Counted from the stretch's first letter, positions 4,595 to 62,660 are shown. The stretch is 64,000 nt of DNA from Centruroides vittatus (GCF_030686945.1 NW_027122708.1:5610248-5674247); one strand, 5' to 3'. Numbers and translations are program-made. Notes: generated by a model not told the origin, from the letters alone.

Positions 4595-4644
4595 TAGCAA
4601 TTATTGTAATAATAATAATATTATTATTATTACAATAATTGCTA
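4595..4644. repeat. Perfect 50-bp AT-rich palindrome.
   Basis: tagcaattattgtaataataataat|attattattattacaataattgcta: the left half is the exact reverse complement of the right half, verified base by base. Confidence 0.9.
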
Positions 4645-5424
4645 ATGTGGTAGATGTATTAGCGTCGATAACGAACAAAGTGGATATTTCTGGAGTTTTT
4701 CTAGAAATTGTGTTGACTACTGGAAAAATTAATTGCGATTTGCCACAAAATTAATTTAGCCAACTTTGTAAATCATATTAAGTGGATTTACAATTCACTC
4801 ATTTCTCATGCCAGTCAGAGATTTATGACACTTCATTAAGTTGTAAAGCACGTGGCAGTAGACTACGTAAGCAAGGGTGGAGCACATTATGGTATACAAT
4901 CGTTAGATACGAGTCTTGGATTACAAATGTAGAAGGATAATTGACTAGGAATTATAAAAAGTGAAATTAATCTTTACGAGCATTTTGAATGATTTTTGGG
5001 TAATATTTCATCTTTGTTAAAGTTATAATAAATCTCTTGATATAACTTTTAAGTTCATAAGTTTTTATTATACGAACGTAATGTAATCTTAAGAAAGTTT
5101 TATATATAAACCAAAATGATTGAGATAGAGATAAAGTACCAATTATTTTTAATTTGTTTATGTCCAAGTTCTTAAATTATCTTATTAACTTTAAACAAAC
5201 TACTTCCTAATTATGAAAGAAAACCTCGTAAGTAAGCATCGAATTGAATTTTAAAATATTTTCTATATTTCATAAGATTACATATATGATATATACGTAA
5301 TAGATAATACATTATTTACAGCAGGCTCGTTATTGGAAAAAAGGCACGAGCTATAGGAAGAGTTTCGAATAAGAGAACAATCCTGGCTTTGTCTTCCAGT
5401 CCTTCATCTCGACAGTGCGTTTTT

Positions 5425-5514: not shown

Positions 5515-5837
5515 TCATATATCGTTCTTTAAAGTTTTGCTGTGGTTTTGGAATTTCTTGCACTTGCAAGATCGGACGACTCTTATCTTGTATGTCCTTC
5601 GATCACCCGAACGACAGATCAAATGAACTCGCTTATGACGGACTAAATCATTAACGCATCGCCATTCGGAGGAACGTGTCCGACTCCTCCTGCTGACCAG
5701 TTCTGTGTACCATGGAAGTTCCGCCACTGGAAGGCATATTCCGGCGCACACTACTTCGGTTACAGGCTTGATAGAGGTACAATATCCGTCCGATATGTAT
5801 TTCTTCGAGCGCAACTCCTTACAACCAAGCTGCACAT
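5515..5837 (-). CDS. sostdc1-like: Terminal coding exon of a sclerostin/SOSTDC1-like protein (DAN-family cystine-knot, secreted BMP/Wnt antagonist type).
   Basis: Minus-strand ORF reads VQLGCKELRSKKYISDGYCTSIKPVTEVVCAGICLP...SSEWRCVND...RTYKIRVVRSCKCKKFQNHS. It has the cystine-knot spacing C..C..CxGxC..C..C..CxC. From memory it aligns closely with vertebrate SOSTDC1/SOST (CRELRS.KYISDG.CTS, EWRCVND, RTYKI.VV..CKCK). The exon is preceded on the minus strand by tttatttttcag, and the 2 nt (at) after the AG complete a phase-1 split codon before the GTG-Val codon at 5835-5833. Stop TGA is at 5517-5515. Confidence 0.8.
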
Positions 5838-8900: not shown

Positions 8901-11900
8901 TTTTTAATCTAATACAAGTTTTCTGAAATTTTAATCAACCTTTTTCATCATTCAAACCGATTTTGAAGCAAGTTCTTAATGGTAATCCAATCAGGTTTTG
9001 TCCTTTCACATCTCGTCAACTTCGTAAAGATGAGGGCCTCTTTCTTAAAGCCGAAAATCTCCGAGAAAACTCGGAGATAATTTAGATCGGCACGATATTT
9101 TTGATATAAGCAATGGATACTAAGATCTATAATCAATGGGAAGATGTCTCCAAGAATAAAGTCGTAATTTTAAACGAGGCGCTTGTAAATTTTGAATTTT
9201 ACCTCCCCCCCGTGTTGATTGTTGCCGCGCCGCTTTCTCGACAATAGAAAAGGTAACCTGTTTCTGGACATGACGGAGGATAGTTTCTATTGTTCCCCGT
9301 CTCTCAATTATGCTGCAGTATGAAACACGTGCCTCCATCCATTGCTGGAGGTATACAACATTTACAACGTCCTTGAGAGGCTCACTCACTGATTGGGTCT
9401 GTTTTTTTCACGGGGGACAGTGCGTGACAGGGAAACACTAGAAAGAGCCTCTTATCTCGTATTGATTTTTTGAAGGAATAATTGTATCTATAGCTTATAC
9501 GTATGAGCGCTTTTGATAGCATATAATTTGGCACATAAAATCAATATTTATAGGAAGAAGCCCAACTCATTAGAAGCTAATATTAGCTTCATTATGTAAG
9601 GGAAAAAAAGTTATAAATGATTAGTTAAATATTTTGAGGGGTTCCTAATAAAATTAGCAACTCAACGAATCGTGAAGTTAAACTGAAATATTTCTGCCGT
9701 GACGGAAAAAGACACATCATAATTTCCTAAACGAAATAGCATTCAGGCAATATGCCCAATCTCGTTTATTGCTTAACACGGTTGCAAATGCGGTGTTAAT
9801 GTAAATTATACTGTTTTGAAAACAGTCAAACGAGTAGGCTAATATATCAGTATTATGTTTAGTAAATATAATTAAATATTAAATAGGAAAAATAATTGGA
9901 AAAAGTATCTCACCTTTCATGTTGTTAGTTGTTATATAGTAGTCATTCTCGAGAAAATATGCCGTCGAATTGGAAAAGTTGTGCATCAAGCGCAGATGAG
10001 TGGATCTGGACGGTTGTTTGAAGGCTTTGCTGAGCAGACAACCCAATTCGACGAGGAAGACCACTACAACGGACCATCTCAAACTAGACGAACCCATCAT
10101 CGTCTGTCTGGAGGCCAAATCTTCCGGCTAAACCTGTCTATTTATGTACCGAATGGAATAAGACATTTGGCAAACAATTCTCTCGCTCTCGTCCCCTCAC
10201 TCACTACACATCTACATCCGACGTCGAACCTACTTCCAACGGGCCAACCAATCGCAGTCCGCCTGTCATTCATATAGTGTTGTCGGGCAATCACGTGATC
10301 CGCGTTGTTTTATCGAGTCTCGAGCCTACAAATTTGACGTCATCCACATTACAAGTAACATATATTCTAATTATTTTATATATGTGAAAGCTTTTAAACG
10401 TGTTATTCTTCTATTAGCGCGCTGTCGTCATATATTATTTTTAAAAAATAAATAAGTAAACAATAAATATAAGTAACCTAATTAAGTAAATTTATTTTCC
10501 TTTTCACCAAAATCGAATAAAACTTCTACGAAATTTTGACCAGAATAAATGTTCTTTTTTAAATAGAATTTTAAAATAATTAACCTCAGTAAATAACAAA
10601 ATATAAATAAATAATTTATATAATAAAAATGTTTTAATTAAAACGTTTGTCAGTAAATAAAATGTCGCTCATATTATACGATACATTAAGCAAATAATAT
10701 CTTTATTGTATATAACTTACTATATATACATTATAATGTATTTATATTTTATATACTGTAGGCCTTTATATGTGGTCTTAAATACATTAGGCCTACTTAC
10801 TTTTCTGTCAGACTGTAGTATTTAAAAATATTACTTTTTTAAAAAATCAGTTTTAATATTTATTATGGTTATTTGTACGCCAGTTGCGCTAAAAAGAATT
10901 CCCCTAATACAAGATTTGAATCCAATCAGATAGTATTTGGTGGGTAATCCGGATCAGGGTGCATTCCTTTGCTCACCCACGATGGCCAACCAATTGCGAG
11001 TCGGATCCGGAATTAAACCTAAAATCTCATATTACTCGTTGCTGCTAGTGAAATAGTTTGTAATGCTAATGCCGTATTATAATAATTCTATTACAATTCG
11101 TTTATTTTATAAATTTTAATGATATAACTTATATCTGAATTCTACCCAATCTCTTCTGAAAAGAAAAGGCCATTTTAATCTTTTGTTGTAATTGTTAATC
11201 GTGAATAAAGTCCGGTTTTCTATTGGCTGTTTTCTCTTTTGTCCGTATAATTCCAGCAAAATATCAATCATGAGCGATTTGTTCCAAACTAAACTTTTGT
11301 GTGGAAGGTCTTCTAGCTTAATTAATCTTAACATCTTGCCAAATTTAAACTAGAAAAGCGAGTAACGCTAATTTACCGAGATACAATAGCATTACATGGC
11401 AAAGGGAAACTATTAATCAACGTAAGATACTAGGCAACGTCACCGTGCCAAGGCCTTCTACTCGAGATGATCTAAAATTCATGATATTGTGAAAGATTTC
11501 CATATTTTTAACCACAAAAATAACAGGAATTTTTCATTTTTCTCTCATTAACAGTCGCCAAACAATTAAATTTTTCAGTTAATTTAATACATTGCACCAT
11601 TATCCTTATCTGTTAATTAAGATTAATTGGGATGCTGATAGTTTTATGTGTCGAGCTTACATACATAAATAATCTAATCTTACTCATATTATATTATTAT
11701 TATTTAAATTTTCCGATAATAGCTCTTGTTTCGGCTCCTTTAAAATTTTGATAATGACGTAGGCCTAAATATATAAACATCTAACGCTAGTAATTTTATC
11801 TCTTAATTTTTTTTTGGTAGTGATGACTTTCGCTTCTAATTAAAAACACATTAGGATTGGTATAAAACCAAATTAGAAAAGAAAAAAAAGTTTAATTTTT

Positions 11901-36039: not shown

Positions 36040-37800
36040 GATAATAAATTGGGGCCCACAGGCTGCTCGCTTTCTCTCGAAGTGCGTTATATCGAGTCAC
36101 CAGGGTAGAATATATCCGAGTACATAGACGTCCGCATCAGTGGCGTAACTAGCATGGGTGACACCCGGTGCAGATATCGTGGTGTCACCTTTTTAAACTC
36201 TTTTATAAAACACTGTTGAATTGTAATATCTTCGCACTCGAGCAACTTGAACGCTATATTGAATATGCGATGTCGCGACCTATGAGTTTAGATTTATAGA
36301 ATAAATCATAGTAAGATTTTCAGCTGGTGCGAGCTCTCGTGGCGTCTCCTCATAGCGAAGAAACTGTCATGGGAGGCGAGCCGTTGACCTTTTGTTTTTT
36401 ATTTTTTTTTTATTTTTTAGGTACAGGCCTACCGGGTGTCACCCCTACACGAGTGACACCCGGGGCGGGCCGCCCCCTCAGCTACGCCTCTGGTCCGCAT
36501 AGGGAAAAAACGGGCACTTTCCCCCCTCCCTGGGATCGAATAAAAGAATTCCACAAATTATAATTGTAAAGGTCATGACATGTAACCTTATACCCTCGAC
36601 CAGGACTATTCTATAATCTACTCGTGGGATAGGGGGGCGTGTACTAGCCGCTGGAGGTACGGGTGAACTTTTAGTGAAGCTTGATAATTCTGTTCTGAGT
36701 GAATTGAAAACCCATAAGAAGCCGAAATATGACAATTTTAAAGAAGTGGTTATTTGTGAATAGACTTTCCTTGATTTTAATTGTGTGTTTATTAATAATT
36801 GCTGGGATTGAGTCCAATCCAGGCCCTTTCCCTCGATCTCCACAACAAATACGTCAAGAAGATATGCAAAGAAGGGGACGAGGCAGACCTTGCAAGAATA
36901 AGCTTCAAGAAAAAGAAAGGCAATTGAGCGATACATCTAGTGAACATTATTATCAGTTAGAGGATGTTTTTAATAAAAATAGTCCTGGGACCTCGAGAGC
37001 TACGAAAATTTACGACTACTTCGAAACTTCAAGAGATCTAGGGCCACAAGTTCAGGAAGAGTCACAATTTACATTGAAAGCAATATACGAGCTAATTCAA
37101 GATAAGTTCTCTCTTCTTCATACTGAACTACAAGGAATTAGAGCAGAAGTCATTGCTTTGAAAGAAGAAAATAAATATTTGAATGGAGAATTGTCAAAAT
37201 TATCCCAAAAAGTAGAAGAATTAGAGGAAATATCTAATAAGAATTGCCAATTGAAAGGTATGTTAGAATTTGAAATAGACCAGCTAGCTAACGTGAGAAA
37301 TAATAATAACATTATAGTTTTAAACTTTCCGTTCAACTCGACCGATCATGTAAAAGAAATTAATCAGTTTATAAAAAAGGACTTGGGAATAATTAATAGT
37401 CACATAAAAGGAGTGGTTAGATTAACCAAAAGTGAAATCAATCCCATAGTGAAAATATTATTGGGGTCCGTATATGATAGGAATCTGATTATTAAAGAAT
37501 TCTGGAAAAAGAAAGGCGACTTCAATAATAAAGTGAAGGAAAAGATAATAGTTACTTCGGATTTATGCATGAGATCCAGAATGAGAAGAAAAAAATTATT
37601 GGCAATAATTAAAGAAGAAAAACACAATGGGAATAGAATTATTATAAAAGATGATTATTATATTAAAGACAACATAAAATATACATATGATATTAATCTA
37701 GATAAAGTAGTCCAATTGAATGATTTTTCGAGAAGAATTGATCGTCATCTTAGTTCTGATTATGGCTAGATAGAAGAAATAATAGTTAGTTTGAATGTTT
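36040..37800 (+). mobile_element. Truncated or solo non-LTR (L1-clade-like) element: GC-rich 5' region plus ORF1, with no ORF2/RT downstream.
   Basis: A GC-rich block, 36040-36720, rich in inverted repeats (GTGACACCCGG / CCGGGTGTCAC), lies immediately 5' of ORF1. The sequence after the ORF1 stop (37770-39700) is AT-rich and ORF-free. No RT or endonuclease ORF occurs anywhere in the window. Confidence 0.55.
36729..37769 (+). CDS. Non-LTR retrotransposon ORF1 protein of L1 type (Transposase_22-like). It has an N-terminal 2A-like peptide and an AT-hook.
   Basis: 346-aa ORF starting at a real ATG. Residues 21-33 LLIIAGIESNPGP (nt 36789-36827) resemble the viral 2A / retrotransposon 2A-like motif (LLKLAGDVESNPG|P). 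RRGRGRPCKNK (GRGRP at nt 36876-36890) is an AT-hook. A heptad coiled coil (LHTELQGIRAEVIALKEENKYLNGELSKLSQKVEELEE) is followed by an RRM-like plus C-terminal domain. That region aligns from memory to human L1 ORF1p: NIIVLNFPF ~ NLRLIGVPE, GVVRLTKSE ~ HIIVRFTKVE, KIIVTSDLCMRSRMRRKK..IIKEE....RIIIKD.YYIKDNIKY ~ IRLTADLSAETLQARREWGPIFNILKEKNFQPRISYPAKLSFISEGEIKYF. Confidence 0.85.
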   Translation: MTILKKWLFVNRLSLILIVCLLIIAGIESNPGPFPRSPQQIRQEDMQRRGRGRPCKNKLQEKERQLSDTSSEHYYQLEDVFNKNSPGTSRATKIYDYFETSRDLGPQVQEESQFTLKAIYELIQDKFSLLHTELQGIRAEVIALKEENKYLNGELSKLSQKVEELEEISNKNCQLKGMLEFEIDQLANVRNNNNIIVLNFPFNSTDHVKEINQFIKKDLGIINSHIKGVVRLTKSEINPIVKILLGSVYDRNLIIKEFWKKKGDFNNKVKEKIIVTSDLCMRSRMRRKKLLAIIKEEKHNGNRIIIKDDYYIKDNIKYTYDINLDKVVQLNDFSRRIDRHLSSDYG

Positions 37801-42599: not shown

Positions 42600-42965
42600 G
42601 GAGCGACAGGCAAAACGCATTTGCCAATCGAAAGTACAGTACAGTTCGAGTAACACGCGCCCTTTCTTACCGTCAGCGCCCTCTGTCAGGCGATAAGTCA
42701 ACGCGCGCTGTCCACCTCTCCTTTCTTCATCCGAACGTCAATCGTTGTAGCACGTGTTGTCTATGCTGTTGTGACGCAACTGACACCAGGTTTTTTTTTC
42801 TTTTTTGTCTGACGCAAAGCGCCCGTCGGGCTGCCAGTCCGTTGTTAGAAATTCAACTCTTTTTGTTTGTTAGCAAAATGATACAAATTGTAAATTGAAT
42901 CTCCTGTTCCGGCCACGGAATTTATCGAAGACGAGTGATTAACCCGCACAAACTTCTAACACAAG
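42600..42965 (+). promoter_or_regulatory. Putative promoter / 5'UTR region in front of the candidate first exon.
   Basis: A locally GC-rich, CpG-containing tract sits in otherwise AT-rich DNA. An Inr-like ACAGTTC is near 42644. A short uORF (atgatacaaattgtaaattga) lies at ~42887. The tract directly precedes the ATG with the GTGAGT donor. Confidence 0.25.
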
Positions 42966-42975
42966 ATGAATAAGA
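42966..42975 (+). CDS. Candidate first coding exon (ATG AAT AAG A|) with a consensus GTGAGT donor. It is proposed to splice to the GPCR exon at 53550.
   Basis: acaagATGAATAAGA|gtgagtgatg: the donor is at 42976-42981 and leaves 1 nt (phase 1). The GPCR acceptor at 53549/53550 is also phase 1 (A|GC = Ser). This gives [13 protein letters not shown]... with an N-x-S glycosylation site. A GC-rich 5'UTR-like tract lies upstream. Confidence 0.3.
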
Positions 42976-45900
42976 GTGAGTGATGCAGATTTTTTTCCGA
43001 AAAAATTCAAATTTATTCGATATTCGTTTATTTTAAAGAAAATTTCAATATGTGAAATAATTAAGCGCTTCTAAGTTTAATTAGATCTTTTCTCTTGTTC
43101 GATAGTTAAAAATAAAAGCAATTTCAAAATTCATTTTTTTTCCATTTTAGGATGATTATTTTTGTTTTGATTAAAGGGGGAAGAAGTTCTTCGCTGAAGG
43201 GATTGAAGTGTTATTTTTTTAGATAAGTCGAAGTCCTTTCGAAAGAAAAATTATGAAAAATTGAAATGAATTTAGTAGAAAATGTTAGAAAAATTAATTA
43301 AATTTCAATAAGTTTTCAATAAGACAGATTTTTGTCCCAAAATGAGAATAATTTCTATTTATTCAAGAAATGAAATGTATAACCTATCATTTTAAATTAA
43401 TTTCATTCAAATTATTCTGTACTTTATTAATATTTCTTAGTGAATAAATTCAAAAAAAGTAACGAAAAACTTAAACCTCGATAGCCTATATCACATCAAG
43501 GTTTAAGTTTGAAATGTGTTATTTAAAAGCGTATAAAGAATTTTTATATTATATTCCAATAAACTTACACAAGTTTTTCACACGTAAGTGATATTTTTTA
43601 AAATTTTCTTTTTCTATTAATTATTTAAATAAATCTTTCGCTATCCAAAATCAAACGAAACTTCTACAATTGATTAAGAAAAGGCAGCTAATTGTATTTA
43701 AATTTAATATTGTAATTTTCTTTTACAATTTTGCTCTCTCGACTCTTCAGAAATAAATTTACATACGAGCCACGTTCCACTTTTCGATTGAGACATTTAT
43801 GCCAATTATCGGATGTCTTTAATACATTTAAACGTATTTCTACTAACATTTATTAACTAGAGTTTGATAGTAGTATTATTTGATGCCTAATTAGTAATTA
43901 TTAAGTACATTTAGCGATACAAGACTCTCTTAACTTAACTGTTAAAAGACGCTAAACTTGCTAAACTTAAAGTTTATAACTTTTCTAAGCTTAGTAATTA
44001 TAGTAGTAATTTATAATGCAGCTATCATATAGTTTTTACAGTGCAAAATCATAATTCCCCCGATAGAAATTATGATATGATGCATTTTAGATGCGAATTA
44101 AACAATTGTTTGCAAGTATTTACAGCAGTAAGCGTTCGTTTGCATTTTTCTTACACGAAAAGTGATTAATAAAGCAAATTCAAATTATTCGTTATAATTC
44201 GTGTGTAGAAAAGAGCGATAAAAAGATGAAAGCATTACGGTTTTATTATCATAAATAATTGCTTTTTAATTAAAAGAATCACCATTCGTTGAAAACTGAT
44301 AGTAACGCGTTTTTTCCAGTTTTGCACATTGTTTTTTGATATTAAAGAATATTAGCGAAATTTACAATTCTTTATTTTAATTAATTTGTATTTAAATACA
44401 CACATATTTTTCAGATTTATTCAGGAATTAAGTAAAGAATCAGAGGTAAATCTTTTATGGAATAAAATGAAAATATTACTTATTTGCGCAAATTTCCTGA
44501 AAATGAGATAGAACACTTCTCAGTTTCGTGCTCTTCACTTGCAAATTTTGATTTTATCCGAGATCGAAGAAGGTAAATATTTTTATAACTAAAAGTTACT
44601 CGTATATACGGGAACTCTAAACACGCGTGTAACTTTTAGTTGTAAAAACAAATAAATTTTTAAAATGTTTAGCACAAAATAAAGAATAACTTATAATGTT
44701 ACTATGTAGAGAAATCATTAAAACGAACATTTTTAAAACATCGTAAATTCTCAAAACTTTACGTAATAATAAGCGGAAAGTATAAGCTATTCATTTAAAA
44801 AACACCAGCAAGTAGTAGGGCCTATATCGCCGTTTATTTTCGACTACTTCCTATGATACACTTGATATGAAATCATTCTGTAATACTATGTCAAGATTTT
44901 ATTTTTGGCTCCCTCTTTTTTCGAAAAAAGATATATAAAAACTAAATAACCGACCATTTCTATCGAAACTTTCACCAAAAAGTTACGGAATTGCCCCCCA
45001 CAGAGCCAAAATTTGAAAATGGAAATATAATACTGATCATGTTTTGATACTCCCATTTTAGGTTCCCCTTTGCGCCTATGCACCCGTTGAACCTGCCTAG
45101 TTACGGCAGGTTTCAAACGCCATTATCATCTAATAATTAATTATAGTTTATTAAAACGCTGTTAATTGTTTATAATCCGAAATTTATAAATCATTAGTTA
45201 ATGTTACCAGGTTAAGTTCTAGTCTGGAAATGTTTGGTATTGATTTGATAATTAATATCTTATTATTATATTTATAAAACCCCATTTGCAATGCTACAGC
45301 TCGATTTGATTTTAGAAATTTATTTTTTTTATCAGTTTAAGGATTCGTTGTTTGGAGTAGAAATGACTCCGAGGAGGAACAAAGAAGCCAAGCTCGCTCT
45401 TGCTATTTCATATGGTTTATAATAAGGCCAAAAGAAATTTTCCGCGTCTTGCATAGAGGTATAAATTGATTCAAATACGGTTTTAAAAGTAGAGAAACGC
45501 TTAATAAATAAAAATATACAAAAACAAAAGCACTTCCAGTCGATTAGATTTCTTCATTTACATAGATTCGAGAAGTTGAGAACGAAGGAAATTTCAATTT
45601 AAAATCCGAAATGTCTTCAACGATTTACAAAATTCTAGTGCAACGATTGATATTTATTTTGATGAATGAAAAAGTATACAAAAATTAAAGAATTAAGACA
45701 TTTTAATGTTAATGTCTTTAAAAAAAGACATACAAACAGGACGTTAAGAGAGGAAATTACAACGTAGAAATTAAGCGACATTTTAAATTTGTAAATGTAA
45801 TTTTATTGTTATATGAAACGTTAATAAAATTAATAAAAAATAACTTAATATTTTGAAAACATGAAACAAAAGATATTGTTATGTATCTTACGTACAGTAC

Positions 45901-46789
45901 AGTACGTAGAAAAGGCTGTCTAAAGTGTTGCTGGAACCATTCTGCCTGAAAGAACGGCTTTAGTTTATAAGAAATATCCAAATTAATTCTCCAAAAACGT
46001 TTGAAGAGAGCAGAGAAAATGCTTCATTTACAAAATAATTTACATTTAATATAGGCTTAATTGTAGGAAATCAAAAGGCATGGGAAAAGTGAGGAATAAA
46101 TAAAGTAGAAATTCAATGATAATGTAATATTGCTGTAGATAAATAACCTTTTAACTGCAAATATTTCGGAAAATATGCAATTATAAACTTTGGTAAAGAA
46201 TAAAAGTACAAACATCTTGAACGAATTTCGAATCATAATTTGAACAAATCCAATTTGTTCTTGTTTTTGCAAGAATATTTTACCTTCTTCTCGAACAACG
46301 TAACTAATTTATCGCAATATCAACTTTTACACAATACATTATGCAATACAATATTCATATTTAGAGTCGAGGATGCAACTCAAAATATATATTTTCATTG
46401 TTTAATGCTAACTGCGATGTTAAACATAGCTTTTCTTTTCTTTTCCTTATCATTGTTTGCCATTATATTCAAGATAATGTTAATTACAATGTTAAAAGCA
46501 TTACAAAAAGTTTTTAACAATTTAATTAACATTAAAATAATGACTTATTTTTAATTTTTAATTTGCTTTTTGCATTTATTGCTATTACATAGACCAAGAA
46601 ATATTACTTTGACTTTATGAAAACGGCCAGGAAATAGTTCGTTATTCAACATCAATCAATTAGCATAGAGCAGGAAAATCTACGGTAACATACGATTTTG
46701 TTTATATTTTTACCGAATAAATAATTATCTCGATTTCAGTTTTACTCTCCATGCTGTTACTTAAATAACACGGTAAAGTATTGGAATCG

Positions 46790-47100
46790 TGTCAAATTTG
46801 ATTCTCCGGGTTTTATGCAAACCTCCACGTTTTGAGACCCCCTGAACCCAAAAATGGAGTAAAATTCCGCGGATGTGTGTGTGTGTGTGTTTTTTTTTCA
46901 ATATCTCACAGTTAAGAAACAAAATTTGGCATAGTAATTTGTATATAAGGGACATTAATACTCCTAATTTTGGAGTACGGAACTCGAGGGGATGGAAACA
47001 GAGTGGAGTCGAACTTAATGAAAATTTTACTTGTTATTGGCATTTAGAATATTTTTAAAACTCGAGACGAGTTTTGAGGGTAGAGACTACCCTCAAAATT
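46790..47100. repeat. Family-D repeat copy. It contains (GT)8-T9 and two adjacent AGA-loop hairpins.
   Basis: It shares ...aatgaaaattttacttgttattggcatttag with 52250-52285 and the ttttgagacc block with 33.7 kb. The hairpins aaaactcg-aga-cgagtttt and ttttgagggtag-aga-ctaccctcaaaa lie at 47056-47098. Confidence 0.45.
46875..46899. repeat. (GT)8 followed by a T9 homopolymer.
   Basis: gtgtgtgtgtgtgtgttttttttt sits inside the family-D repeat. Confidence 0.9.
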
Positions 47101-48786
47101 AAACTTTTTTAAAATAATAATTAATAACATAAAAGTTATTTTTTAATATAATCTCATAACAGATAGCGCTACACACCATTTTAACTTTGTACTAATGTGT
47201 CTTAGTGTTTCTTAAACATAAATATTTTTCGTCGGGAAAGTTATATTAACTCGTTACTGGATCTTTTAGTTATAGTTTTATGTTTAACTCAATATATTAT
47301 TTATTATCATTTTCTTAATCGGCTGTTTTTTAATTTATAAACTATGTTTACTTCATTTCTTTAAAAATAATTATTTTAATTCTAAAACTTGGACAAGACT
47401 AAATTATTTGAAAGATAATTATGCCTAGTAAGCCTATATGGCACAAAAGCTCAAAAAGGTTTGCCCTTTGAGCCTGCGTGTCCTTGAGCAAGATTTTTTC
47501 ATAACGTAGTCTATTCATTTGTTACGTATGCTATAACAAACGAATAGACTGCGTTGTGTATATAGGAATGTAGGATAACACAATACAGTAGACTAAGCGG
47601 GAACAAAATAAATATTTGCTTTTTCTGGATTTGTTTTTTATTTGTTTAAACGCGAAGCTCCCAAAATTCTCAGCCTGGTAGAGAGGCAATTATTCTTCTC
47701 GAGCTATATTAGTGATATGTAAATACTAAGAGTTTTGTATCACTAAATAAGACAAGTGTTAGTCGAATGTAACAATAATTTTTTGTTTTTTAAATATTCA
47801 ACTATTTTTCTTACATCGAGAATTTTATTAATGTATTAAATCGTGTATCAGTGAATGTTATAATTAGTTGCTTTTCCTTCATTGTGCGATGAAAGTTTTC
47901 TTTTTCTCTCTCATAACACGGAAAGTTCAAAGAAAATTTTTATTTATATTTCCTTTTTGAATTATCTCGTGCCAATATATTGCACTTCCTGTACCTAAGT
48001 CTAAATATTAAATAAAACTATATTGAATTTTTCTTTCTAGAAACCTCTCATCTATTGATAAATTTCCTTTTAACAATTATCCGTACATACACAATTCTAA
48101 TAATGTACGTAAGTTTGTTCTGGAATAAGCTTTATGAACGAGAATACAAATAAAATTTTCAAAATATACTTTTAACCATTGAAGGAAAAACATAAAATTC
48201 TGATAATGTATAACTTTTCTTTTGATATATCGCTCTGACCCCATCAAGTGAAAAATTAGGTCTTACACTTTAATAAAACATGGAGTAATCTCTGTTATCA
48301 TTTTACAGAATTTTAAAGTTATAAGAGAAAAAAAACCGATAAAATATATATTTTTATTTTATATAACTTATTATTAATTGAAAGGGAAATTTTCCAAAAT
48401 GATTTTGAAATCAGTTTTTAGAACTGACCACAATAAATTTTTTAATTAATTATTATAAAAATATTTGCTAGATTAAAACGTATTAATAAAGTATAATATT
48501 TTACTTTATTTTTATTATAATTATTAATTTTTAAAAATCAAATTAAACAAAAAAAAAATACAAATAAATTTTAATATATTTTAAAAAACTAAAAAAAAAT
48601 TTCTTAGTCATATTTTACGAGATTGGGGAGGAGAATGGTGGGGTGGCCTCACCCACAACGTACTGTACACTCGTACACCATTACAGTGCATTTACACATA
48701 TCTTGATTAAATTCTGCATTTGGTTATGTTTATCGAGTTTCGAGTGGGAGAATGGAGGTGAAGCCAACCCTAGCAAACATTAAAGT

Positions 48787-49024
48787 TTGTTTGTTTGTTT
48801 AGTTAAGTTATGGCAACGCAACACTTGGACGATCTGCCTAGAGTAAATGCCTTCCGACAGGTCTTTTTAAGGTTAACTGGCCCCTATTCAGGCGTTACAG
48901 ACGCGAAGAAAACCCGGAAAACGCCACGTGGCCTGAAAACTCCAGACTGTCCTGGCGAGGCGCGAACCCATGACGGAACTCCCAGTGTTTAGGGAACGGA
49001 ACCGCTTGGCCACAGGTGGGCCGT
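48787..49024 (-). mobile_element. tRNA-derived SINE (family B) flanked by perfect 12-bp target-site duplications.
   Basis: The minus-strand reading begins with a tRNA-like head GGCCCACCTGTGGCCAAGCGGTT...GGGTTCGCGCC (A- and B-box-like). It ends in a (CAAA)n tail, seen as ttgtttgtttgttt on the plus strand. The direct repeat aaacattaaagt occurs at 48775-48786 and again at 49025-49036, immediately flanking the element. Confidence 0.8.
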
Positions 49025-49140
49025 AAACATTAAAGTGCATTGTCATCAGACTTATGTCCTAAAAGTTTTGGCCTTCTATCTTAATTAGCAGTAGTTGAAA
49101 TTTGAGTTGCAAGAATTGAGAACACGATATAAAGCGAATT

Positions 49141-49141
49141 A

Positions 49142-49169
<28 letters not shown>
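49141..49169. repeat. (AAT)9-10 microsatellite.
   Basis: aataataataataataataataataataa, read directly from the sequence. Confidence 0.95.
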
Positions 49170-49172
<3 letters not shown>

Positions 49173-52089
49173 CATTGCAGCCTCTTTAAAATGATGAAGA
49201 TATTCTTCATTTTAAAATGAGAAAATAGATTTTCACACATTTACAATAATATATACAGTATATATAGTAATATAGTAGTAATAATATTTTCACACAGATT
49301 AAACACACATTTACAGCAACGCGAACGCGTAACTTCTTTAATTATGCCATTTATATGCATATCTATATTTAGTTTGAAAATGTTTATTGGTTTCTTCGTC
49401 GATAGATTTATATCATTATAATTGAGTTATCTAAATACAGTTAATGGCTTTCGTTTATCCGCATCTATCCAATCACTTTACGTTAGTCAAAATAGAAAAG
49501 ATTAAAATGCTTATTTTTTATCATCCATTTATTATATTGAAATAAAATATCGTCCATTTAATTAATCTTTAAGGATAATCTGGATAAAATTTTCATTTAC
49601 AAAATGGAAAAGTGTGTCCGGAATGAAACTGAATTTTTAATTACAGATTTAAAAGCCATCGATGATTGTTAAAAATCGAATTAGCGGATCTAATCTGGCA
49701 ATTTTTGGAAGGTGAGTAAAATTCAAAACAGCAAACACACGCCATTTACAAAGTTTATTTCGGACAGAAATGTAACGGGGCAGGAAATTGGGTGACGTCA
49801 CAAGCGCTCTTGGTAATTATATCGCCTCTATAAATGTAAGCAACTTAGCAAAATTCGGCCAATCAGAAATATGATTGGATAGATTCAATACGAAAATCGG
49901 CATTATTAATTAAATTAAAACAAGTGCCTAATACATTTTTAATTGTCTTAAATCACTGAACAGATAGTAGCAAATTATTTAATTAGAAAGCTATATGTAA
50001 TCGTTATATATATTTTGCTCACCGTTCTTTAATAAAAAATAAATATAGTAATAATCAAATTTTTTGATTACCTGTTTTTATTCTAATGACAAAGATCATA
50101 AAAAGTAAAATGTTGGGCATATTTATAAGTATTGTATTATCATATGCATTATATACTGTATATGGTACATATAATACAGATTATAGATATGATAACACAA
50201 AAAAACCTGTAAACTATCAAAATGATTATCAAATTTTCTTGTTACCTTATAAATATGTAATGTAATAAACACGTATTTTTTATTCCGAGTAAAGGAATAG
50301 TCTATTTCCATAAAATTCCATAGTTTATGCATCAATAACTTTTATAAAATATTGTAGCTTAACAGTTATACAGTCCTAAAAACTTCGCTAAAATCAGAAG
50401 TAACATGCAAAAACCTGTGCAGATAAATACAATAGAAATTATATTACATAAAAAAATAAAAGATTAAAGAGGATTGTGACTACTCTGATGCACGGATTTT
50501 AATTTAATTAAATAACATCAAACAGAATTTAAAGTCAGGCAAATAAATTTCTAAGAAGAAAAAATAAATCTAGTTCTTCAAAGCACTAATCTTTGGAGGC
50601 AGAATTTAGAATTTTGTTAATTTTAAACAGAAAAAACAAAAGGAAGATTATATGCTCTTTTCCACGTTAATGACGGAGTCTAGAATCTATTTTTCCTCTA
50701 TTGAAAATTTGATAATCATTTTGATAGTTTACGGGGAGTTTTTTTATTTCGATTAATATTAGGCGTCTTGAATTTATTTAACTTAACAGAAGAATATGAA
50801 TGTAACATATTACTGATGGCTGTAATGAAGATGAAAGCCAGACACATAATGCACCTTCTTTAGATAAATAACAAAAGATACACAGAAAACTTGACCGCAA
50901 AGACAGCAAATGATCTAAACGCAAAACCCCTCAAAATATTCTGTTAAATTTGTGTTTTTCCCCCTAGTATAAACAAACTGTGTAGTTTTATGCGTATTTG
51001 TTTACTAAAGTACTTGTGTTTCTAAAAATGAAAACATACTTATACTTGAAGAATTAGTTGAAATACCAAATACTACAATACCATTGTAGTGTACTAGTAT
51101 AAAATACTATTAAAAATAATGGCATTTCATTACTTTGTTAGTATTGTGATCTTTTGGGTCATACAAAATATCATCGAAACAGATACGCACTAATTTATCT
51201 CATATTAAATCAGCCATGTTGAAATGATGTGGAAAAGCTATAGGCTTACTTTACATACATTTTTTTAAATAGAAAAAATTCGTTAAATTTTTATTTTTCG
51301 ATGAAACTATTAATAAATAATCATTTTTTATTAAGAATAAAGAGTTTTGCAATTTTGTATTTATACATAGATAAGAAGATATTAACTAAAAAAAAACTAT
51401 ATATAAAACGAAATTTATCTCAAACGAATTTCATTTTTGAAAAGATGTCTTAGAAATACTAATTTTTAGATATATAATTATGTATATGAACTTATGCATA
51501 TAAATAAATGTATATAAACAAGTCATTTGTCGTAGATTTATACATTGATGACTCCCTCATTTCATCATGATGACGAAATCTTCAATAGTAAATCTCGGAT
51601 CTCCTTTTTAATAGAATGAAATATATTTTGTTTCATATTTGTATTTATATTTTTGTTCGTTATTGTTATAATTATTCCACTCAAATAATTCCTATAACAA
51701 CGTCTAAAAAAATATATTTTCTATATCATTATCAATATTTATAATTGAAAATAAGATTTTTGAATTAACCAGAAAAGCTTTAATTAAAAGATCTCCGTGG
51801 ACCATTCAAAATTTTGTTTTTGAATAAAATACTGTGGCATGCCCTGAAATAACCTATCTTTTAGATGGGTCATTTCTATTATATCTATCATCATAGAGAT
51901 TTATATTTTAGTATTTATTATTAATTTTATTACTTCCTTTTACCTTCTCGGCTGTTAAAACAACAGAAGGAAAATATTGTAATCGGTTAAATTTTGACTC
52001 TTTGAATTTTTTGCATTTCTCGAATGTCTTAAGGTCTCCCGATTAAAAAAAAACGGAATTCTGTATGTGTCGGCTTGTATTTTGCTCTA

Positions 52090-52300
52090 TATCTGAGAAC
52101 TCCCTTGGGATACCTCAGAAAATTTTGATATTTGGCAGAAATAATTCTATATATGGCATTAATGCTATTACGTTTAGAAGGTTATAAATCAAGGGGAGGG
52201 GAGATAGGAGTAGTAGGAGGCATATCGTTAGTAATGTCAGATATAATGAAAATTTTACTCGTTATTGTCATTTACAGTTTTTTTTTAAAAAAACACCCCT
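52090..52300. repeat. Family-D repeat copy.
   Basis: gatataatgaaaattttactcgttattgtcatttacag matches 47018-47050 (gaacttaatgaaaattttacttgttattggcatttag). Confidence 0.4.
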
Positions 52301-53524
52301 TTCCAAAATAAGGCTTTTGCCTGTTATAATAATTATATATATATATATATAATATATAGAAAAATAAAAAAGCCATGCCAGGAAAGTCGTGCAAGAGCCC
52401 TTAATCTTTTAAATTAATAATTATAGTAATAAAAAAAAATAAAGTTTCAACTTATTAAAACATCATAGTGGATAATGGAACACTTTTTTCCATTATTTAA
52501 TTTAAAAATAATGGAATCTGATAATAATATTCAAAATGTAGGGATGAAATCGATTTCAAATTATCTCTGGGAGTAGTATGGTAATTTTAAGCTACGATTT
52601 CAAAATACCTCCTCAAAGAACTTATCATTTGTACCGGTACGTTCCATCAGAATAAAACATGGAGCGAATACATGTAAAATTCCGATCAATCAGCCCGCTT
52701 TTTCAGCCAGATTCTGATTGGAACTTGAGATTATGCCATATTGAGGACAATTATTGTCTCATCCATATTGGATAATGTCACTTTGTTTCATAATGTCTGC
52801 TCCAGTGTTGTAGAATACAAGGCCGTCGAGAGGGGAAGCGGGGATTTTTCTCCGGACTCTGAAAAAACTTAGGGGTCCATAGTGGCTCTTACCCCGTAAA
52901 TTAATATTATTTTTGATTAAAAAATATAATTGTTTAAGACTGATTTTTATTAATAAAGGAACTTTCTACATATTCGTTTAATTTGTTCAAAAAAGATATA
53001 ATAAAAAGGACCCGCTTTATCCCGTGGCCTGGTAGAGCATTAAACCCTGGTAAGATGATCCACCTCGAAACCTGGGACACTGAGAGATTAAGTTTTATTA
53101 TGGCAATAATCCTTAACAGATGGATTTACGTATACAATACATATGTAAATGACAATAAGTAGGGCCTAATTGGAGTGTGCCATGTAATACAATTAAAATT
53201 TTTGTGACTTTTTTATTTTTCAAGAGTTGAGGCTAGCTTTCAATATTGTGTTTCATTCAATACAGTTTTATTCAATAAAACGTACCACGAGTTGTAAGTA
53301 TAAAAGAAAAAAAAATTATCATTTTAGCTAAATCGGGAAGAACAACGCTCAGGATTTATTTGAAGACCGGGGTTTAATCAACGAAATTTGTATCTACTGA
53401 AGGCTTCGATTTATTATTTACAGCGATTAAACTCTCGGATTTCACGTTTCTTTATTTAACAAATTCTAAAATTTTAATAGTAGACTATAAATTTTTCTTA
53501 TTTTTAAATCTAAAACACGCTTTG

Positions 53525-55444
53525 ATGCTTAAAATTTGTTTTCTTTCAGGCGATATTACAGAGGAAGAGGATGTTACTAATCAAACTCTGACGTCTATGA
53601 TGACGTTCGACGTCATCAATCGTAGCGTATGGATTGTGGACGTAGAGTGGCAAACATCCAAAGATAATTCGACGTGGTGGACTACCTGGAACGAAAACAA
53701 TGATACCATTTATCTAAGCGTCACCAACTGTACCAATCAAAGCGAATCTTGTAATGGTACCAACATAGTGCCCGAGAGTCCTCCTTTCAACTTATGGCAG
53801 ACCATAGTTATTGCTGTTCTGATAGGAATATGCTCCCTCCTAACCATAGCGGGTAATATATTGGTTCTTTTGGCGTTTGTAGTGGAACGAACAATACGTC
53901 AACCCAGCAACTATTTCATTGCTTCTTTAGCCCTCTCCGATCTTTTTATTGGAATCATCTCCATGCCGTTTTACGCCGTATACGTATTAGTCGGAAGGTG
54001 GGATCTAGGTCCTATTACCTGCGACTTGTGGTTAGCAATCGATCATACCGTATGTCTGGTTTCCATCTACACTGTATTATTAATCACTATCGATAGATAT
54101 TGTTCGGTCAAGATCGCTACTAAGTATAGAGCCTGGAGAACCAATACCAAAGTGTGGTGGATGGTAATCACTACTTGGATTGTTCCGTTTTTAGTCTTTT
54201 TCATTACAGTTATGGGTTGGGAACATTTTATTGGTTATCGTGATTTAGCTCCCGGTGAATGTGCGGTGCAATTTCTTAAAGATCCCATCTTTAATACTTC
54301 TTTAATATTTGGATACTTTTATCTCACTCTCATTGTACTCTTCGTCCTTTACGCGGGAATATACAAAACGGCCAGCGACATGCAAAAGAGATCCGAAGCC
54401 AAACAGAAAAAAGTGCAATCTTTGGTCTCCATGAATAAAGAAAAATCAGAGGAGAAATCCGTTTTGACAACATCAAAATCGTTCGGCAAAGAAAAAAGAA
54501 AACTTGAATCAAACAATGTAACAAATTCGAATCAAAGAAACACAGATTCGACAGAAGGGCAAAATACAGAAAAAAAATTCGAGACGTCATTTACTGAAGA
54601 AAAGAAAGAAAATTCCGATCATTCGAGCAGCCCCGTTTTTGATTCTGACGAAGAAAATGCTGCCCCTCAAGCAAATAAAAAAGAAAAGCGAAAATCCGCA
54701 GGTAGATCGATAGAAAACTTAAAATCAATTCCTAAAATACAACCCATTCCTCCCCCTCCTCCCCTGCCTCCTCCTCAACCACTCTGTCAATCTTTAAGCA
54801 GATCGTCAAGAAATAACGAAGAGAGCAAAATAAAATTACTACGTGCAGAAATGGACGAGAGAAAATTTAAAGATAACGAAAGACCTGGTAATCTGAACGT
54901 GAGTTACGTAGATCAAGAATGCCCTTCGACGTACACACAACTGCCAACTCTCTTACATTTCGAAGGAGGAGAAGTAAAAGATATAAATGCATTACGTAAC
55001 TCGGGGGAAAGCATTAAAGCTCGAGACGAAATGCAACCCATTGTGGACCCCGAACGTTCGGCATTCTTAACGATTTCAAAAGAATTATCATCTTGTTCCA
55101 AAAAAGTATCTTCTCTTCGACAGAAATTTAAAAAAGGAAGAAGCAAACTAAAAGGAGAAAAAAGACAAAAGTCTAAATCAGAAAACAGAGCCAGAAAAGC
55201 TTTGAGAACAATATCATTTATTCTGGGAGCATTCGTGTTATGCTGGACTCCCTATCACATTTTAGCCGTTGTAGAAGGTTTCTGTTCTGTTTCGTCCGGC
55301 TGTGTCAACCATCATTTCTTTTATTTTACTTATTTTCTTTGTTACGCCAACAGCCCTATTAACCCATTCTGTTACGCATTGGCCAATCTACAGTTTAAGA
55401 AGACTTTTTATCGTATTTTAAGAGGCGATTTTCACAGAAAATAA
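53525..55444 (+). CDS. Class-A GPCR of muscarinic-acetylcholine / biogenic-amine type. At least nt 53550-55444 are coding.
   Basis: 640-aa continuous ORF. Helix motifs recalled from mAChR sequences: TM2 [24 protein letters not shown]3 [12 protein letters not shown]...IDRYCSV (Asp3.32 and DRY present), a ~240-aa Lys/Ser/Pro-rich third intracellular loop, TM6 [16 protein letters not shown]7 [20 protein letters not shown] (compare M2 NPACYALCNATFKKTF). N-glycosylation sites sit in the N-terminus. The first in-frame ATG is at 53525, but a strong acceptor tttgttttctttcag ends at 53549, so the true 5' end is probably spliced. Stop TAA is at 55442-55444. Confidence 0.9.
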
Positions 55445-59057: not shown

Positions 59058-59630
59058 TTAATAATACAAATTGATGTTGATGTGTTCAGATAATAAATTA
59101 ATTTCAAAATAATGACGCCTTCCTTCTTGATGTCTTCCACTTTCTCTGCGTTCACTCTCTCTCTCTTCACGTTCTCTGTGTTCACTCTCTCTCTCTTCAC
59201 GTTCCCTGCGTTCATTCTCTCTCTCTTCACGTTCCCTGCGTGCATTCTCTCTCTCTTCACGTTCTCTGTGTTCATTCTCTCTCTCTTCACGTTCCCTGCG
59301 TTCATTCTCTCTCTCTTCACGTTCTCTGTGTTCATTCTCTCTCTCTTCACGTTCCCTGCGTTCACTCTCTCTCTCGTCACGTTCTCTGTGTTCATTTTCT
59401 CTCTCTTCACGTTCTCTGCGTTCACGCTCTCTTTGATTTTGATTATTTTCTCTTATCGTTCTTCTAATTTCTGCTTCTTCTTCTCTTTCTCTAATACGCC
59501 TTAATCGCATTCTTTCTCGATTCTTTCGTAGGCGTTCTTCTCTTTTTTGTTGTGTTTCGTTAGCACGCCTTTCTCGTTGTTTCACTCTATTTATTTCCCT
59601 TTCTCTTTCTCTTTTTTCTAAGATGTCCAT
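59058..59630 (-). CDS. Candidate Arg/Glu-rich repeat-protein ORF (190 aa). Its C-terminal half is encoded by the 30-bp minisatellite.
   Basis: ATG at 59630-59628 sits in an aaaaATGG context. The unique N-terminal 65 aa (MDILEKREREREINRVKQRERRANETQQKREERLRKNRERMRLRRIRE...) are already RE-rich before the tandem repeats begin. The RE-rich coding potential therefore extends beyond the repeats. Further RE/RD-rich ORF pieces continue downstream on the same strand (58938-58741). Confidence 0.35.
   Translation of the reverse strand: MDILEKREREREINRVKQRERRANETQQKREERLRKNRERMRLRRIREREEEAEIRRTIRENNQNQRERERREREERENEHRERDERESERREREERENEHREREERENERREREERENEHREREERENARREREERENERREREERESEHREREERESERRESGRHQEGRRHYFEINLLSEHININLYY
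59131..59440. repeat. 30-bp minisatellite, about 10 units (ttcactctctctctcttcacgttctctgtg and variants).
   Basis: A direct tandem periodicity of 30 nt is read off the sequence from 59151 onward, with unit variants ttcattctct.../gttccctgcg. On the minus strand every unit encodes a 10-aa E/R-rich repeat (REREERENEH type). Confidence 0.95.
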
Positions 59631-62200: not shown

Positions 62201-62435
62201 TACCTCAAAGTTTGTACAGTTTGTTGCAAAAATGTAAACACCTTATTATCACATAAAGGTAATTATTATCGCATTTTTACAAGAATTTTTTTTATTCAAA
62301 GAAATCATGTGAAGTCTTTCGGACGTTAAGGTTAACAACTTCGATCACGTGCGTATTAATAGTAGATCGGTATTAATTAGTAGTCGTTGATCATTCTGTC
62401 TTCCGGGAGGTCAACGACTTCTTTTGGCGAGCCCA

Positions 62436-62660
62436 CCAGTGACCAAACGGTCTTCGTACCCTGAACACTGGGCGTTCAGTCGTAGGTTCGCGCCTCGTTC
62501 TGACGGGATAGCCACGTGGAGTTTTCCGGATTTTCTCCACGTCTGTAATGCCTAAAGGCCAGTTTCTCTTAAAAAGACATCCCGGAAGGCATCCGCCCTA
62601 GGCAGATCACCCAAGCGTTGCGTTGCCATAACTTAACTAACAAACTACTTTTGGTCGAAT
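62436..62660 (+). mobile_element. SINE family B copy (tRNA-like head plus conserved body).
   Basis: It shares ggcgagcccacc..gggcgttcagtcgtaggttcgcgcc and the body ggagttttccggattttctcc..cgtctgtaatgcctaaaggccagtt..cttaaaaagac..cccgg.aggcatc..ccctaggcagatc.cccaagcgttgcgttgccataacttaactaa with the 48.8-kb copy in reverse complement. Confidence 0.65.

Follow-up and report, generated by a model that had tools for sequence, protein, structure and literature searches.

We analysed a 64,000-nt stretch of the genome of Centruroides vittatus (GCF_030686945.1 NW_027122708.1:5610248-5674247), referred to here as the window, with positions counted from its first letter. It is clearly eukaryotic, with a G+C (GC) content of about 30%. 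On its plus strand lies a receptor gene that is very probably the orthologue, in intact form, of the arthropod B-type muscarinic acetylcholine receptor (mAChR-B, 'gar-2-like') and whose 5' intron would end at 53549. An initial annotation had described this gene as a muscarinic-type receptor with unusual residues in its ligand pocket, a three-codon first exon and an intron of about 10.6 kb. We therefore examined the identity of the receptor, the residues that line its orthosteric pocket, and the structure of the 5' end of the gene.

The receptor open reading frame

The receptor is encoded by one long open reading frame (ORF), nearly all of which lies in what we call the main exon.

53522 to 55444, plus strand: ORF of 640 codons counted from a TTG, with an in-frame ATG at 53525
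53550 to 55444, plus strand: main exon, uninterrupted, encoding the N-terminal ectodomain and transmembrane helices TM1 to TM7 and closing with a TAA stop at 55442-55444; defined by the ORF, the Pfam 7tm_1 match and B-type best homologues

The translated ORF matched the complete 7tm_1 profile of Pfam (PF00001; profile positions 1-260 of 260, residues 102-609) with E = 1.5e-56 and 192 bits against a cut-off of 30.5. Together with the best homologue, at E = 4e-185, this far exceeds the level expected by chance. Receptor motifs of TM2, TM3 and TM7 could be read directly in the ORF, TM6 reads CWTPYH, and the third intracellular (i3) loop spans about 270 aa. The motif architecture reported in the initial annotation (TM2, TM3 with DRY, a long i3 loop, CWTPY and TM7) was thus found in full, each element in its place. 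In an alignment to the M3 receptor, on which all Ballesteros-Weinstein numbers given here are anchored, the motifs IDRY (3.49-3.51), CWTP (6.47-6.50) and NPFCY (7.49-7.53) were intact. A 7tm_1 match that spans TM1 to TM7, combined with DRY, CWxP and NPxxY, places the protein among the class-A (rhodopsin-like) G-protein-coupled receptors. The choice of start codon, considered below, affects no more than the first 4-24 residues of the extracellular tail, which is disordered and not conserved.

Relationship to known muscarinic receptors

Among solved structures, the top 31 matches in the PDB were M1-M5 mAChRs (E 1e-65 to 1e-56), followed by the histamine H1 receptor, with the serotonin receptor 5-HT1 among the next-best. 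The closest solved relatives are thus muscarinic, and Asp3.32, Trp6.48, Tyr6.51, Tyr7.39 and Tyr7.43 are kept, which supports a muscarinic receptor in the broad sense. Homologous proteins were taken as the best 120 matches from a collection of 5.8 billion proteins. The best of these were chelicerate proteins named 'muscarinic receptor gar-2-like' or 'M2-like' from Limulus, Tachypleus, Centruroides, ticks, mites and spiders (E down to 4e-185), and proteins of Drosophila and Tribolium named 'muscarinic acetylcholine receptor type B' were also among the matches (E ~1e-155). No near-identical match was present in the protein collection.

Over 388 well-aligned columns, core identity was 70-77% to chelicerate sequences and 65-69.5% to those of insects, crustaceans and a millipede. 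A neighbour-joining tree restricted to B-type sequences nested the protein within the chelicerate group, weakly beside a pseudoscorpion and a scorpion sequence. Three sequence elements, namely the i3 motif SSSPxFDSD(E/D), a juxtamembrane segment and a C-terminal GD(F/L)H motif, were common to the window protein, chelicerates, the millipede and insects. All of the best 120 matches carry the B-type signature C3.36, L3.37, F4.57 and H6.52 (120/120). The earlier assignment to a muscarinic-type receptor was therefore correct but too unspecific: homology, pocket and identities all identify the protein more exactly as a B-type orthologue, a further chelicerate copy of an already known class.

The closest characterized system is the mAChR-B of the ticks Ixodes ricinus and I. 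scapularis (Ir-mAChR-B, 826 aa; PMC7524744, PMC13022164). The 17 pocket positions compared, including H3.33, C3.36, I5.43 and H6.52, are the same in both proteins, and identity over the TM blocks was 62-78% to the Ixodes sequences (P0010, P0014), as against 39-43% to M3 (A-type). TM1 to TM7 are encoded without introns in both. Each has a long, disordered, N-glycosylated N-terminus with a W-Q pair ahead of TM1 (FNLWQ), as well as the i3 motif SSSPxFDSDEE and, at the C-terminus, the sequence FKKTFYR(I/V)LRGD(F/L)H(R/K)(K/T). The window protein differs from its Ixodes counterpart in having a shorter i3 loop and a smaller total size (631-640 aa versus 826), and beyond these motifs the N-terminal and i3 sequences are unrelated. 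A further difference concerns the start: unlike in Ixodes, the only in-frame ATG ahead of the acceptor-like site of the window gene sits in a putative intron, and the start may lie in a separate mini-exon.

Core identity to the B-type receptors of Drosophila melanogaster and Tribolium castaneum (P0101, P0106, P0107) was about 68%, and these share H6.52, C3.36, L3.37, F4.57, N5.39, L5.42, I5.43, Y5.46 and T5.50 as well as the i3 and C-terminal motifs. The insect proteins have Tyr3.33 with Tyr5.47, whereas the window protein and other chelicerates have His3.33 with Phe5.47; the insect N-terminus is also longer and includes a conserved Cys-containing segment that is not in the window protein. Vertebrate M1-M5 and arthropod A-type receptors have in common with it the aminergic fold, Asp3.32, Trp6.48, Tyr6.51, Tyr7.39, Cys7.42, Tyr7.43 and the DRY, CWxP and NPxxY motifs, at the TM-block identity of 39-43% given above. 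The nematode receptors GAR-1 and GAR-2 are linked to the window protein through the 'gar-2-like' names of its matches and through the literature; PMC10731000 and PMC13022164 place both in the invertebrate-specific (B-type) clade.

The orthosteric pocket

The codons of the two pocket segments at issue were located as follows.

54041 to 54055, plus strand: TM3 pocket codons Asp3.32, His3.33, Thr, Val and Cys3.36, from the M3 alignment; they match H160 and C163 of Ixodes mAChR-B
55244 to 55258, plus strand: TM6 pocket codons Trp6.48, Thr, Pro6.50, Tyr6.51 and His6.52, from the M3 alignment

The initial annotation had reported that His replaces Asn6.52 and that the residue after Asp3.32 is also His. 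Both positions were verified against M3, with His3.33 encoded by CAT at 54044-54046 and His6.52 by CAC at 55256-55258, and the canonical residues are not there; the first of these histidines takes the place of Tyr3.33, part of the A-type amine cage. The change is more extensive than these two residues. Across the 17 pocket positions taken from the alignment with the 120 homologues, ten are unlike M3 (Y3.33H, S3.36C, N3.37L, W4.57F, T5.39N, T5.42L, A5.43I, A5.46Y, P5.50T and N6.52H) and seven are as in M3 (D3.32, F5.47, W6.48, Y6.51, Y7.39, C7.42 and Y7.43). All nine residues that mark the A-type pocket (Y3.33, S3.36, N3.37, W4.57, T5.39, T5.42, A5.43, A5.46 and N6.52) are substituted.

The same pocket is found in chelicerate orthologues. 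All 17 positions were identical to those of every chelicerate orthologue listed (tick, horseshoe crab, scorpion, spider and mite), and H6.52, C3.36, L3.37, F4.57, N5.39, L5.42 and Y5.46 were present in 120/120 homologues. The TM5 proline was missing from all 120 B-type sequences, 118 of which have Thr5.50. H3.33 occurred in 47 of the 120, and its named carriers were all of the named chelicerates and one millipede. His3.33 was accompanied by Phe5.47 in 43 sequences and Tyr3.33 by Tyr5.47 in 70, the remaining 7 being mixed; from these sequences, 3.33 and 5.47 form a possible co-evolving pair that would separate the chelicerate from the pancrustacean (Tyr3.33 with Tyr5.47) B-type pocket. The two pocket histidines are a family signature and no anomaly, His6.52 being class-wide and His3.33 belonging to the chelicerate subset. 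The substitutions behind the description of the pocket as unusual are therefore real, but they are usual for the class, and the same pocket has been tested in Ixodes mAChR-B.

In that work, the atropine site of Ir-mAChR-B differed from that of human M1 (Hs-M1) by Y106H, S109C, A193I and N382H; in the tick receptor these positions are H160, C163, I247 and H765 (PMC13022164, Nat Commun 2026). The Ixodes homologues P0010 and P0014 carry H160, C163 and I247 at the numbers published for Ir-mAChR-B. All four of the substitutions that distinguish the tick B-type from M1 and the A-type (H3.33, C3.36, I5.43 and H6.52) are present in the window protein.

Predicted ligand and pharmacology

Ir-mAChR-B is activated by acetylcholine (ACh) with a half-maximal effective concentration (EC50) of 0.68 uM and by muscarine with one of 6.6 uM, and is not activated by methacholine or oxotremorine (PMC13022164). 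Exchange of the four residues between A and B types alters sensitivity to atropine, methacholine and oxotremorine; A-types keep the complete M1 atropine site, and B-type mAChRs are missing from deuterostomes (PMC13022164). The tick B-type is reported to couple to Gq/11, with concentration-dependent effects on cyclic AMP (PMC13022164). For the insect B-type, the summary of Collin 2013 and Ren 2015 in PMC7203735 gives activation by ACh, a muscarine sensitivity that is 1000-fold lower, insensitivity to atropine and other classical antagonists, and Gi/o coupling. Little or no sensitivity to atropine, QNB and further classical antagonists, combined with activation by ACh, is known from the orthologues of Drosophila, Tribolium and Ixodes (PMC13022164, PMC7203735).

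By orthology, we infer that the window protein would act as a neuronal G-protein-coupled acetylcholine receptor, with ACh as the expected ligand. Its quaternary amine would be held by Asp3.32 together with Trp6.48, Tyr6.51, Tyr7.39 and Tyr7.43. The class-specific residues His3.33, Cys3.36, Leu3.37, Phe4.57, Asn5.39, Leu5.42, Ile5.43, Tyr5.46 and His6.52 would reshape the pocket, which would lead to poor binding of classical muscarinic antagonists and of several synthetic agonists. By analogy, the receptor should therefore show B-type pharmacology, being activated by ACh, with atropine-like antagonists and several classical agonists weak or inactive. Weighing against this prediction, the ligand and the pharmacology are extrapolated from tick and insect orthologues, and these disagree with each other: muscarine acts on the tick B-type at micromolar levels, whereas the sensitivity of the insect B-type to it is lower by a factor of about 1000.

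Two other readings of the locus were considered. If His3.33 and His6.52 made this a receptor for a ligand other than ACh, such as another amine, the departure from M3 at 10 of 17 compared positions would be accounted for, as would the rank of histamine H1 and 5-HT1 as next-best structural relatives. However, Ixodes mAChR-B has an identical pocket and responds to sub-micromolar ACh and to muscarine (PMC13022164), the insect B-types share His6.52 and are receptors for ACh in the summary given by PMC7203735 (citing Collin 2013 and Ren 2015), and Asp3.32, Trp6.48, Tyr6.51, Tyr7.39, Cys7.42 and Tyr7.43 are all kept. A non-ACh receptor is accordingly very improbable, and because the aberrant-looking pocket is the standard chelicerate B-type pocket, no new ligand class is required. 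The earlier doubt that this is a conventional acetylcholine receptor is justified only in so far as the B-type has its known non-classical pharmacology. Alternatively, the locus could be a pseudogene or a retro-copy, for which neither expression nor splicing would be expected. A single-exon coding sequence in a repeat-rich, AT-rich region would suit such an origin, and a query of the protein collection with the N-terminal 103 aa alone, which would also have shown transcript-derived sequence of the same species, gave zero matches. Yet more than 630 codons remain uninterrupted in DNA of 30% GC, the class-A and B-type motifs are all intact, pocket identity is 17/17, and a single-exon coding sequence is the usual state of this gene in chelicerates; nor was a poly(A) tract or a target-site duplication seen at the ends of the ORF in the sequence read. 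We regard a pseudogene or retro-copy as extremely improbable, and an intact B-type receptor gene remains our reading.

A probable splice acceptor ahead of the main exon

The initial annotation placed a strong splice acceptor 24 nt downstream of ATG 53525. This site is present, is rare in the window and is matched at orthologous loci.

53535 to 53549, plus strand: splice acceptor tttgttttctttcag, 3' end of the 5' intron, phase 1 relative to the ORF; supported by rarity, orthologous loci and a shift in GC content

The site ends 24 nt past the A of ATG 53525, and the exon starts at 53550 in phase 1. Both strands of the window (128 kb in total) were scanned for at least 11 pyrimidines in 12 positions followed by YAG/G, the slash marking the exon boundary here and below. 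Sites of this quality numbered four on the plus strand and 0 on the minus strand, so that the number expected by chance within the short stretch around the ORF's 5' edge is only 0.002-0.008. In our own base count, the 25 nt ahead of the acceptor have a GC content of about 0.24 and the sequence just after it one of about 0.40.

In the orthologous genes of six chelicerates, an acceptor-like site lay 3-139 nt before the annotated ATG in every case (6/6), the first ATG of the main exon being used for the pseudoscorpion. The distances from acceptor-like site to ATG were as follows.

Parasteatoda: 16 nt
Ornithodoros: 19 nt
Tachypleus: about 63 nt
Limulus: about 72 nt
Dinothrombium: about 139 nt
Cordylochernes: 3 nt (first ATG of the main exon)

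Because all six loci show such a site, a 5' intron ending just ahead of the large exon appears to be conserved in this gene. In the window gene, an acceptor likewise marks the 5' edge, and its own sequence from TM1 to the stop codon is uninterrupted, an arrangement compatible with a start codon either in the large exon (53597) or in a 3-codon upstream exon (42966). Taken together, these observations make it highly likely that the acceptor at 53549 is in use.

The candidate upstream exon and translation start

The high confidence that we place in the identity of the receptor covers no single start-codon model. The features that bear on the start are listed below.

42601 to 42975, plus strand: GC-rich island, candidate 5' exon and promoter region; unique in the window, with about 50% GC compared with about 25% on either side
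42966 to 42975, plus strand: proposed coding part of exon 1, ATG AAT AAG A (Met-Asn-Lys and the first base of Ser), with A at -3; in frame when joined to 53550
42976 to 42981, plus strand: candidate donor GTGAGT, 7.4 bits by an approximate position weight matrix (PWM), exon side AGA non-consensus
42976 to 53549, plus strand: candidate phase-1 intron of 10,574 nt, AT-rich, holding a dispersed repeat and an inverted-repeat pair resembling a miniature inverted-repeat transposable element (MITE)
43136 to 43150, plus strand: strong rival acceptor ttttttttccattttag, among the four strongest in the window, located 175 nt downstream of the 42976 donor
48600 to 49100, plus strand: second GC-rich island, consisting of a dispersed repeat whose inverted copy (77% identity) lies at 62431-62645
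53525 to 53527, plus strand: ATG upstream of the acceptor, a start only if the transcript is unspliced; T at -3; within the AT-rich polypyrimidine stretch of the putative intron
53571 to 53591, plus strand: out-of-frame ATG opening a 6-codon upstream ORF (uORF), ATGTTACTAATCAAACTCTGA; A at -3; ends 5 nt before ATG 53597
53597 to 53602, plus strand: in-frame ATGATG, 48 nt after the acceptor; candidate start giving MMTFDV..., matching the orthologue architecture

The junction proposed in the initial annotation could be read in the sequence in all its parts: ATGAATAAGA/GTGAGT lies at 42966-42981 behind a GC-rich tract, donor and acceptor are both in phase 1, and joining 42975 to 53550 reads MNKSDITEEE..., with the junction codon A/GC encoding Ser. 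GC content drops exactly at the GTGAGT (42976), and this is the best donor in the island, the next scoring 4.0 bits. No second copy of the 42.6-kb island was found in the window, and Rfam and tRNA scans of the window, island included, gave no match. When the island was compared with 10 kb of upstream sequence from the orthologues of Parasteatoda and Limulus, only low-complexity matches were returned, which is uninformative at such divergence. The island at 42601-42975 is the best candidate for the upstream exon and, spliced directly to 53550, would place the start at ATG 42966.

Two other assignments were rejected. An alternative first exon at 48970-49015, with its ATG at 48970 and a donor at 49016 (11.4 bits), was discounted because the GC island in which it lies is a dispersed repeat. 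The 42.6-kb island as first exon of a sclerostin-like gene elsewhere in the window was also dismissed, as an acceptor at about 5838 and a signal-peptide-like exon near 10.1 kb already serve that gene. Copies of the dispersed repeat at 48793-49021 (plus strand) and 62431-62645 (minus strand) are about 77-86% identical and show no tRNA or Rfam similarity; the consensus-like donor CCACAG/GTGGGC and an ATG within the repeat mimic a coding mini-exon. The 42.6-kb island also contains a good minus-strand donor-like site at 42670, CTGACG/GTAAGAAA (9.4 bits), which may reflect a divergent transcript of the same promoter region or have arisen by chance.

Several observations weigh against a start at 42966. 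The donor PWM is a generic approximation rather than one trained on this species, and the exon-side AGA is non-consensus, hence the score of 7.4 bits; this score is equalled or exceeded at 38 GT sites upstream on the plus strand, including 11 between 42 and 53.5 kb. Among other mini-exons that combine an ATG with a phase-1 donor, eight have equal or better donors, and a back-of-envelope calculation from base composition puts the chance rate of such candidates at about 1 per 10 kb. Within the island, the ATGs of two short uORFs, at 42763 and 42878, precede ATG 42966, and use of the acceptor at 43150 would turn ATG 42966 into the start of a 4-codon uORF, MNKR*. The structure of the orthologues also points away from it. 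In Limulus, Tachypleus, Ornithodoros and Dinothrombium the coding sequence is a single uninterrupted exon that includes the ATG, in Parasteatoda the ATG is in the same exon as TM1 to TM4 and is followed by a long intron near residue 220, and the cloned Ixodes mAChR-B ORF is described as intron-less (PMC7524744).

The intron of Parasteatoda tepidariorum, of about 43 kb (10693-53663 of that locus), splits the coding region near residue 216-231. As it is missing from the window, horseshoe-crab, tick and mite genes, it is a lineage-specific gain, or was lost elsewhere. The annotated short first coding exon of the pseudoscorpion was distrusted as support for a coding mini-exon: a receptor-like copy lies between the exons, and the main exon has an ATG 3 nt past the acceptor. 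In this species, Cordylochernes scorpioides, a second B-type-like receptor copy occupies 3235-5301 of the locus, flanked by the annotated first exon on one side and by the main exon (7499-9418) on the other, which suggests a tandem paralogue and a chimeric annotation.

The initial annotation had named ATG 53525 as the only in-frame ATG. This holds upstream of the acceptor, but past it two more in-frame ATGs, at 53597 and 53600, follow at a distance of 48 nt and still ahead of TM1. Non-coding upstream exons could be joined by an intron ending at 53549 to a coding sequence that starts at ATG 53597 and encodes 615 aa, with ATG 42966 either not joined to 53550 or serving as a uORF. The orthologues favour this arrangement, as in six chelicerate loci the ATG sits in the large exon 3-139 nt past an acceptor-like site, a range that includes the 48 nt seen here; so do the intron-less Ixodes ORF (PMC7524744) and the acceptor at 43150, which would close the 42966 frame as MNKR*. 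On the other hand, ATG 53597 has T at -3, and the uORF from ATG 53571, which has A at -3 and ends 5 nt before it, should lower initiation there. The frame is also open all the way from the acceptor and, were the 42.6-kb island the spliced partner, its in-frame ATG would come first. An unspliced transcript without a 5' coding intron, starting at ATG 53525 and encoding 639 aa, would make the acceptor-like motif a coincidence. That ATG is in frame and is the first of the ORF, and the ORFs of orthologues are intron-less. Against this, the combination of a polypyrimidine tract with CAG/G is very rare in the window (0.002-0.008 expected in the interval), the 25 nt from ATG to acceptor are intron-like in composition (GC ~0.24 versus ~0.40 just after), the ATG has T at -3, and the orthologous loci all have an acceptor-like site just ahead of the start.

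We infer that the unspliced transcript is improbable and that the use of some other upstream exon is unlikely. A start at ATG 53597 is a realistic possibility without being our first choice, which falls, tentatively and at somewhat below even chances, on ATG 42966. The support for the 42966 exon comes from its position at the end of the island; the exon is plausible but only moderately supported. Of the splice model originally put forward, the acceptor is thus supported both statistically and comparatively, but the 3-codon exon remains a plausible candidate, its donor being unexceptional and rival junctions and starts being available.

Other features of the window

Apart from the receptor, the window contains a neighbouring gene, two further ORFs of note and several repeats. 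An exon encoding a sclerostin/DAN cystine-knot domain lies at 5515-5835 on the minus strand (Pfam Sclerostin, E = 4e-32), with a strong acceptor just upstream at about 5838. This SOST-like gene in an arthropod genome neighbours the receptor and likely has a signal-peptide-like first exon near 9880-10100 (minus strand), MMGSSSLRWSVVVVFLVELGCLLS..., about 4 kb away.

An ORF of 346 aa with coiled-coil character was found at 36729-37769 (plus strand), in a GC-richer block at 36-38 kb, and is overlapped by an antisense ORF at 36478-36936 (minus strand). It had no Pfam match above the cut-off and may be a retroelement ORF1-like remnant. A tandem array of 15/30-nt repeats in 16 registers occupies 59078-59492, within an Arg/Glu-rich ORF at 59058-59630 on the minus strand (RERE...ENEH); several frames are open there, and no Pfam match was obtained. 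Pairs of terminal inverted repeats were observed at 30833-30877/31647-31691, 50199-50238/50703-50742 and 34953-35037/35524-35608, which are 96%, 90% and 82% complementary, respectively. Their members are spaced 0.5-0.8 kb apart and have the look of MITE-type DNA transposons, and one pair lies inside the proposed intron.

Conclusions

It is conceivable, at a very small probability, that the chelicerate pairing of His3.33 with His6.52 may give an undescribed property, such as proton or metal sensitivity of ACh signalling or an extra endogenous ligand, or may underlie the difference in muscarine sensitivity between tick and insect B-types. More modestly, but within the same slim chance, a 3-codon upstream coding exon may have been recruited in this lineage, giving an extra N-glycosylation sequon (MNKS) to a receptor that, in its orthologues, is translated from one exon.

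The main consequence of the analysis is one of annotation, in that an aberrant-looking muscarinic receptor turns out to be a standard chelicerate B-type mAChR. It also calls for caution with automatic annotation, as a call based on the ORF only would start at an ATG that is probably inside an intron. Applied interest attaches to B-type mAChRs as arthropod-specific targets for acaricides and insecticides, and a further chelicerate sequence with an identical pocket at 17/17 positions underlines how strongly this pocket is conserved.

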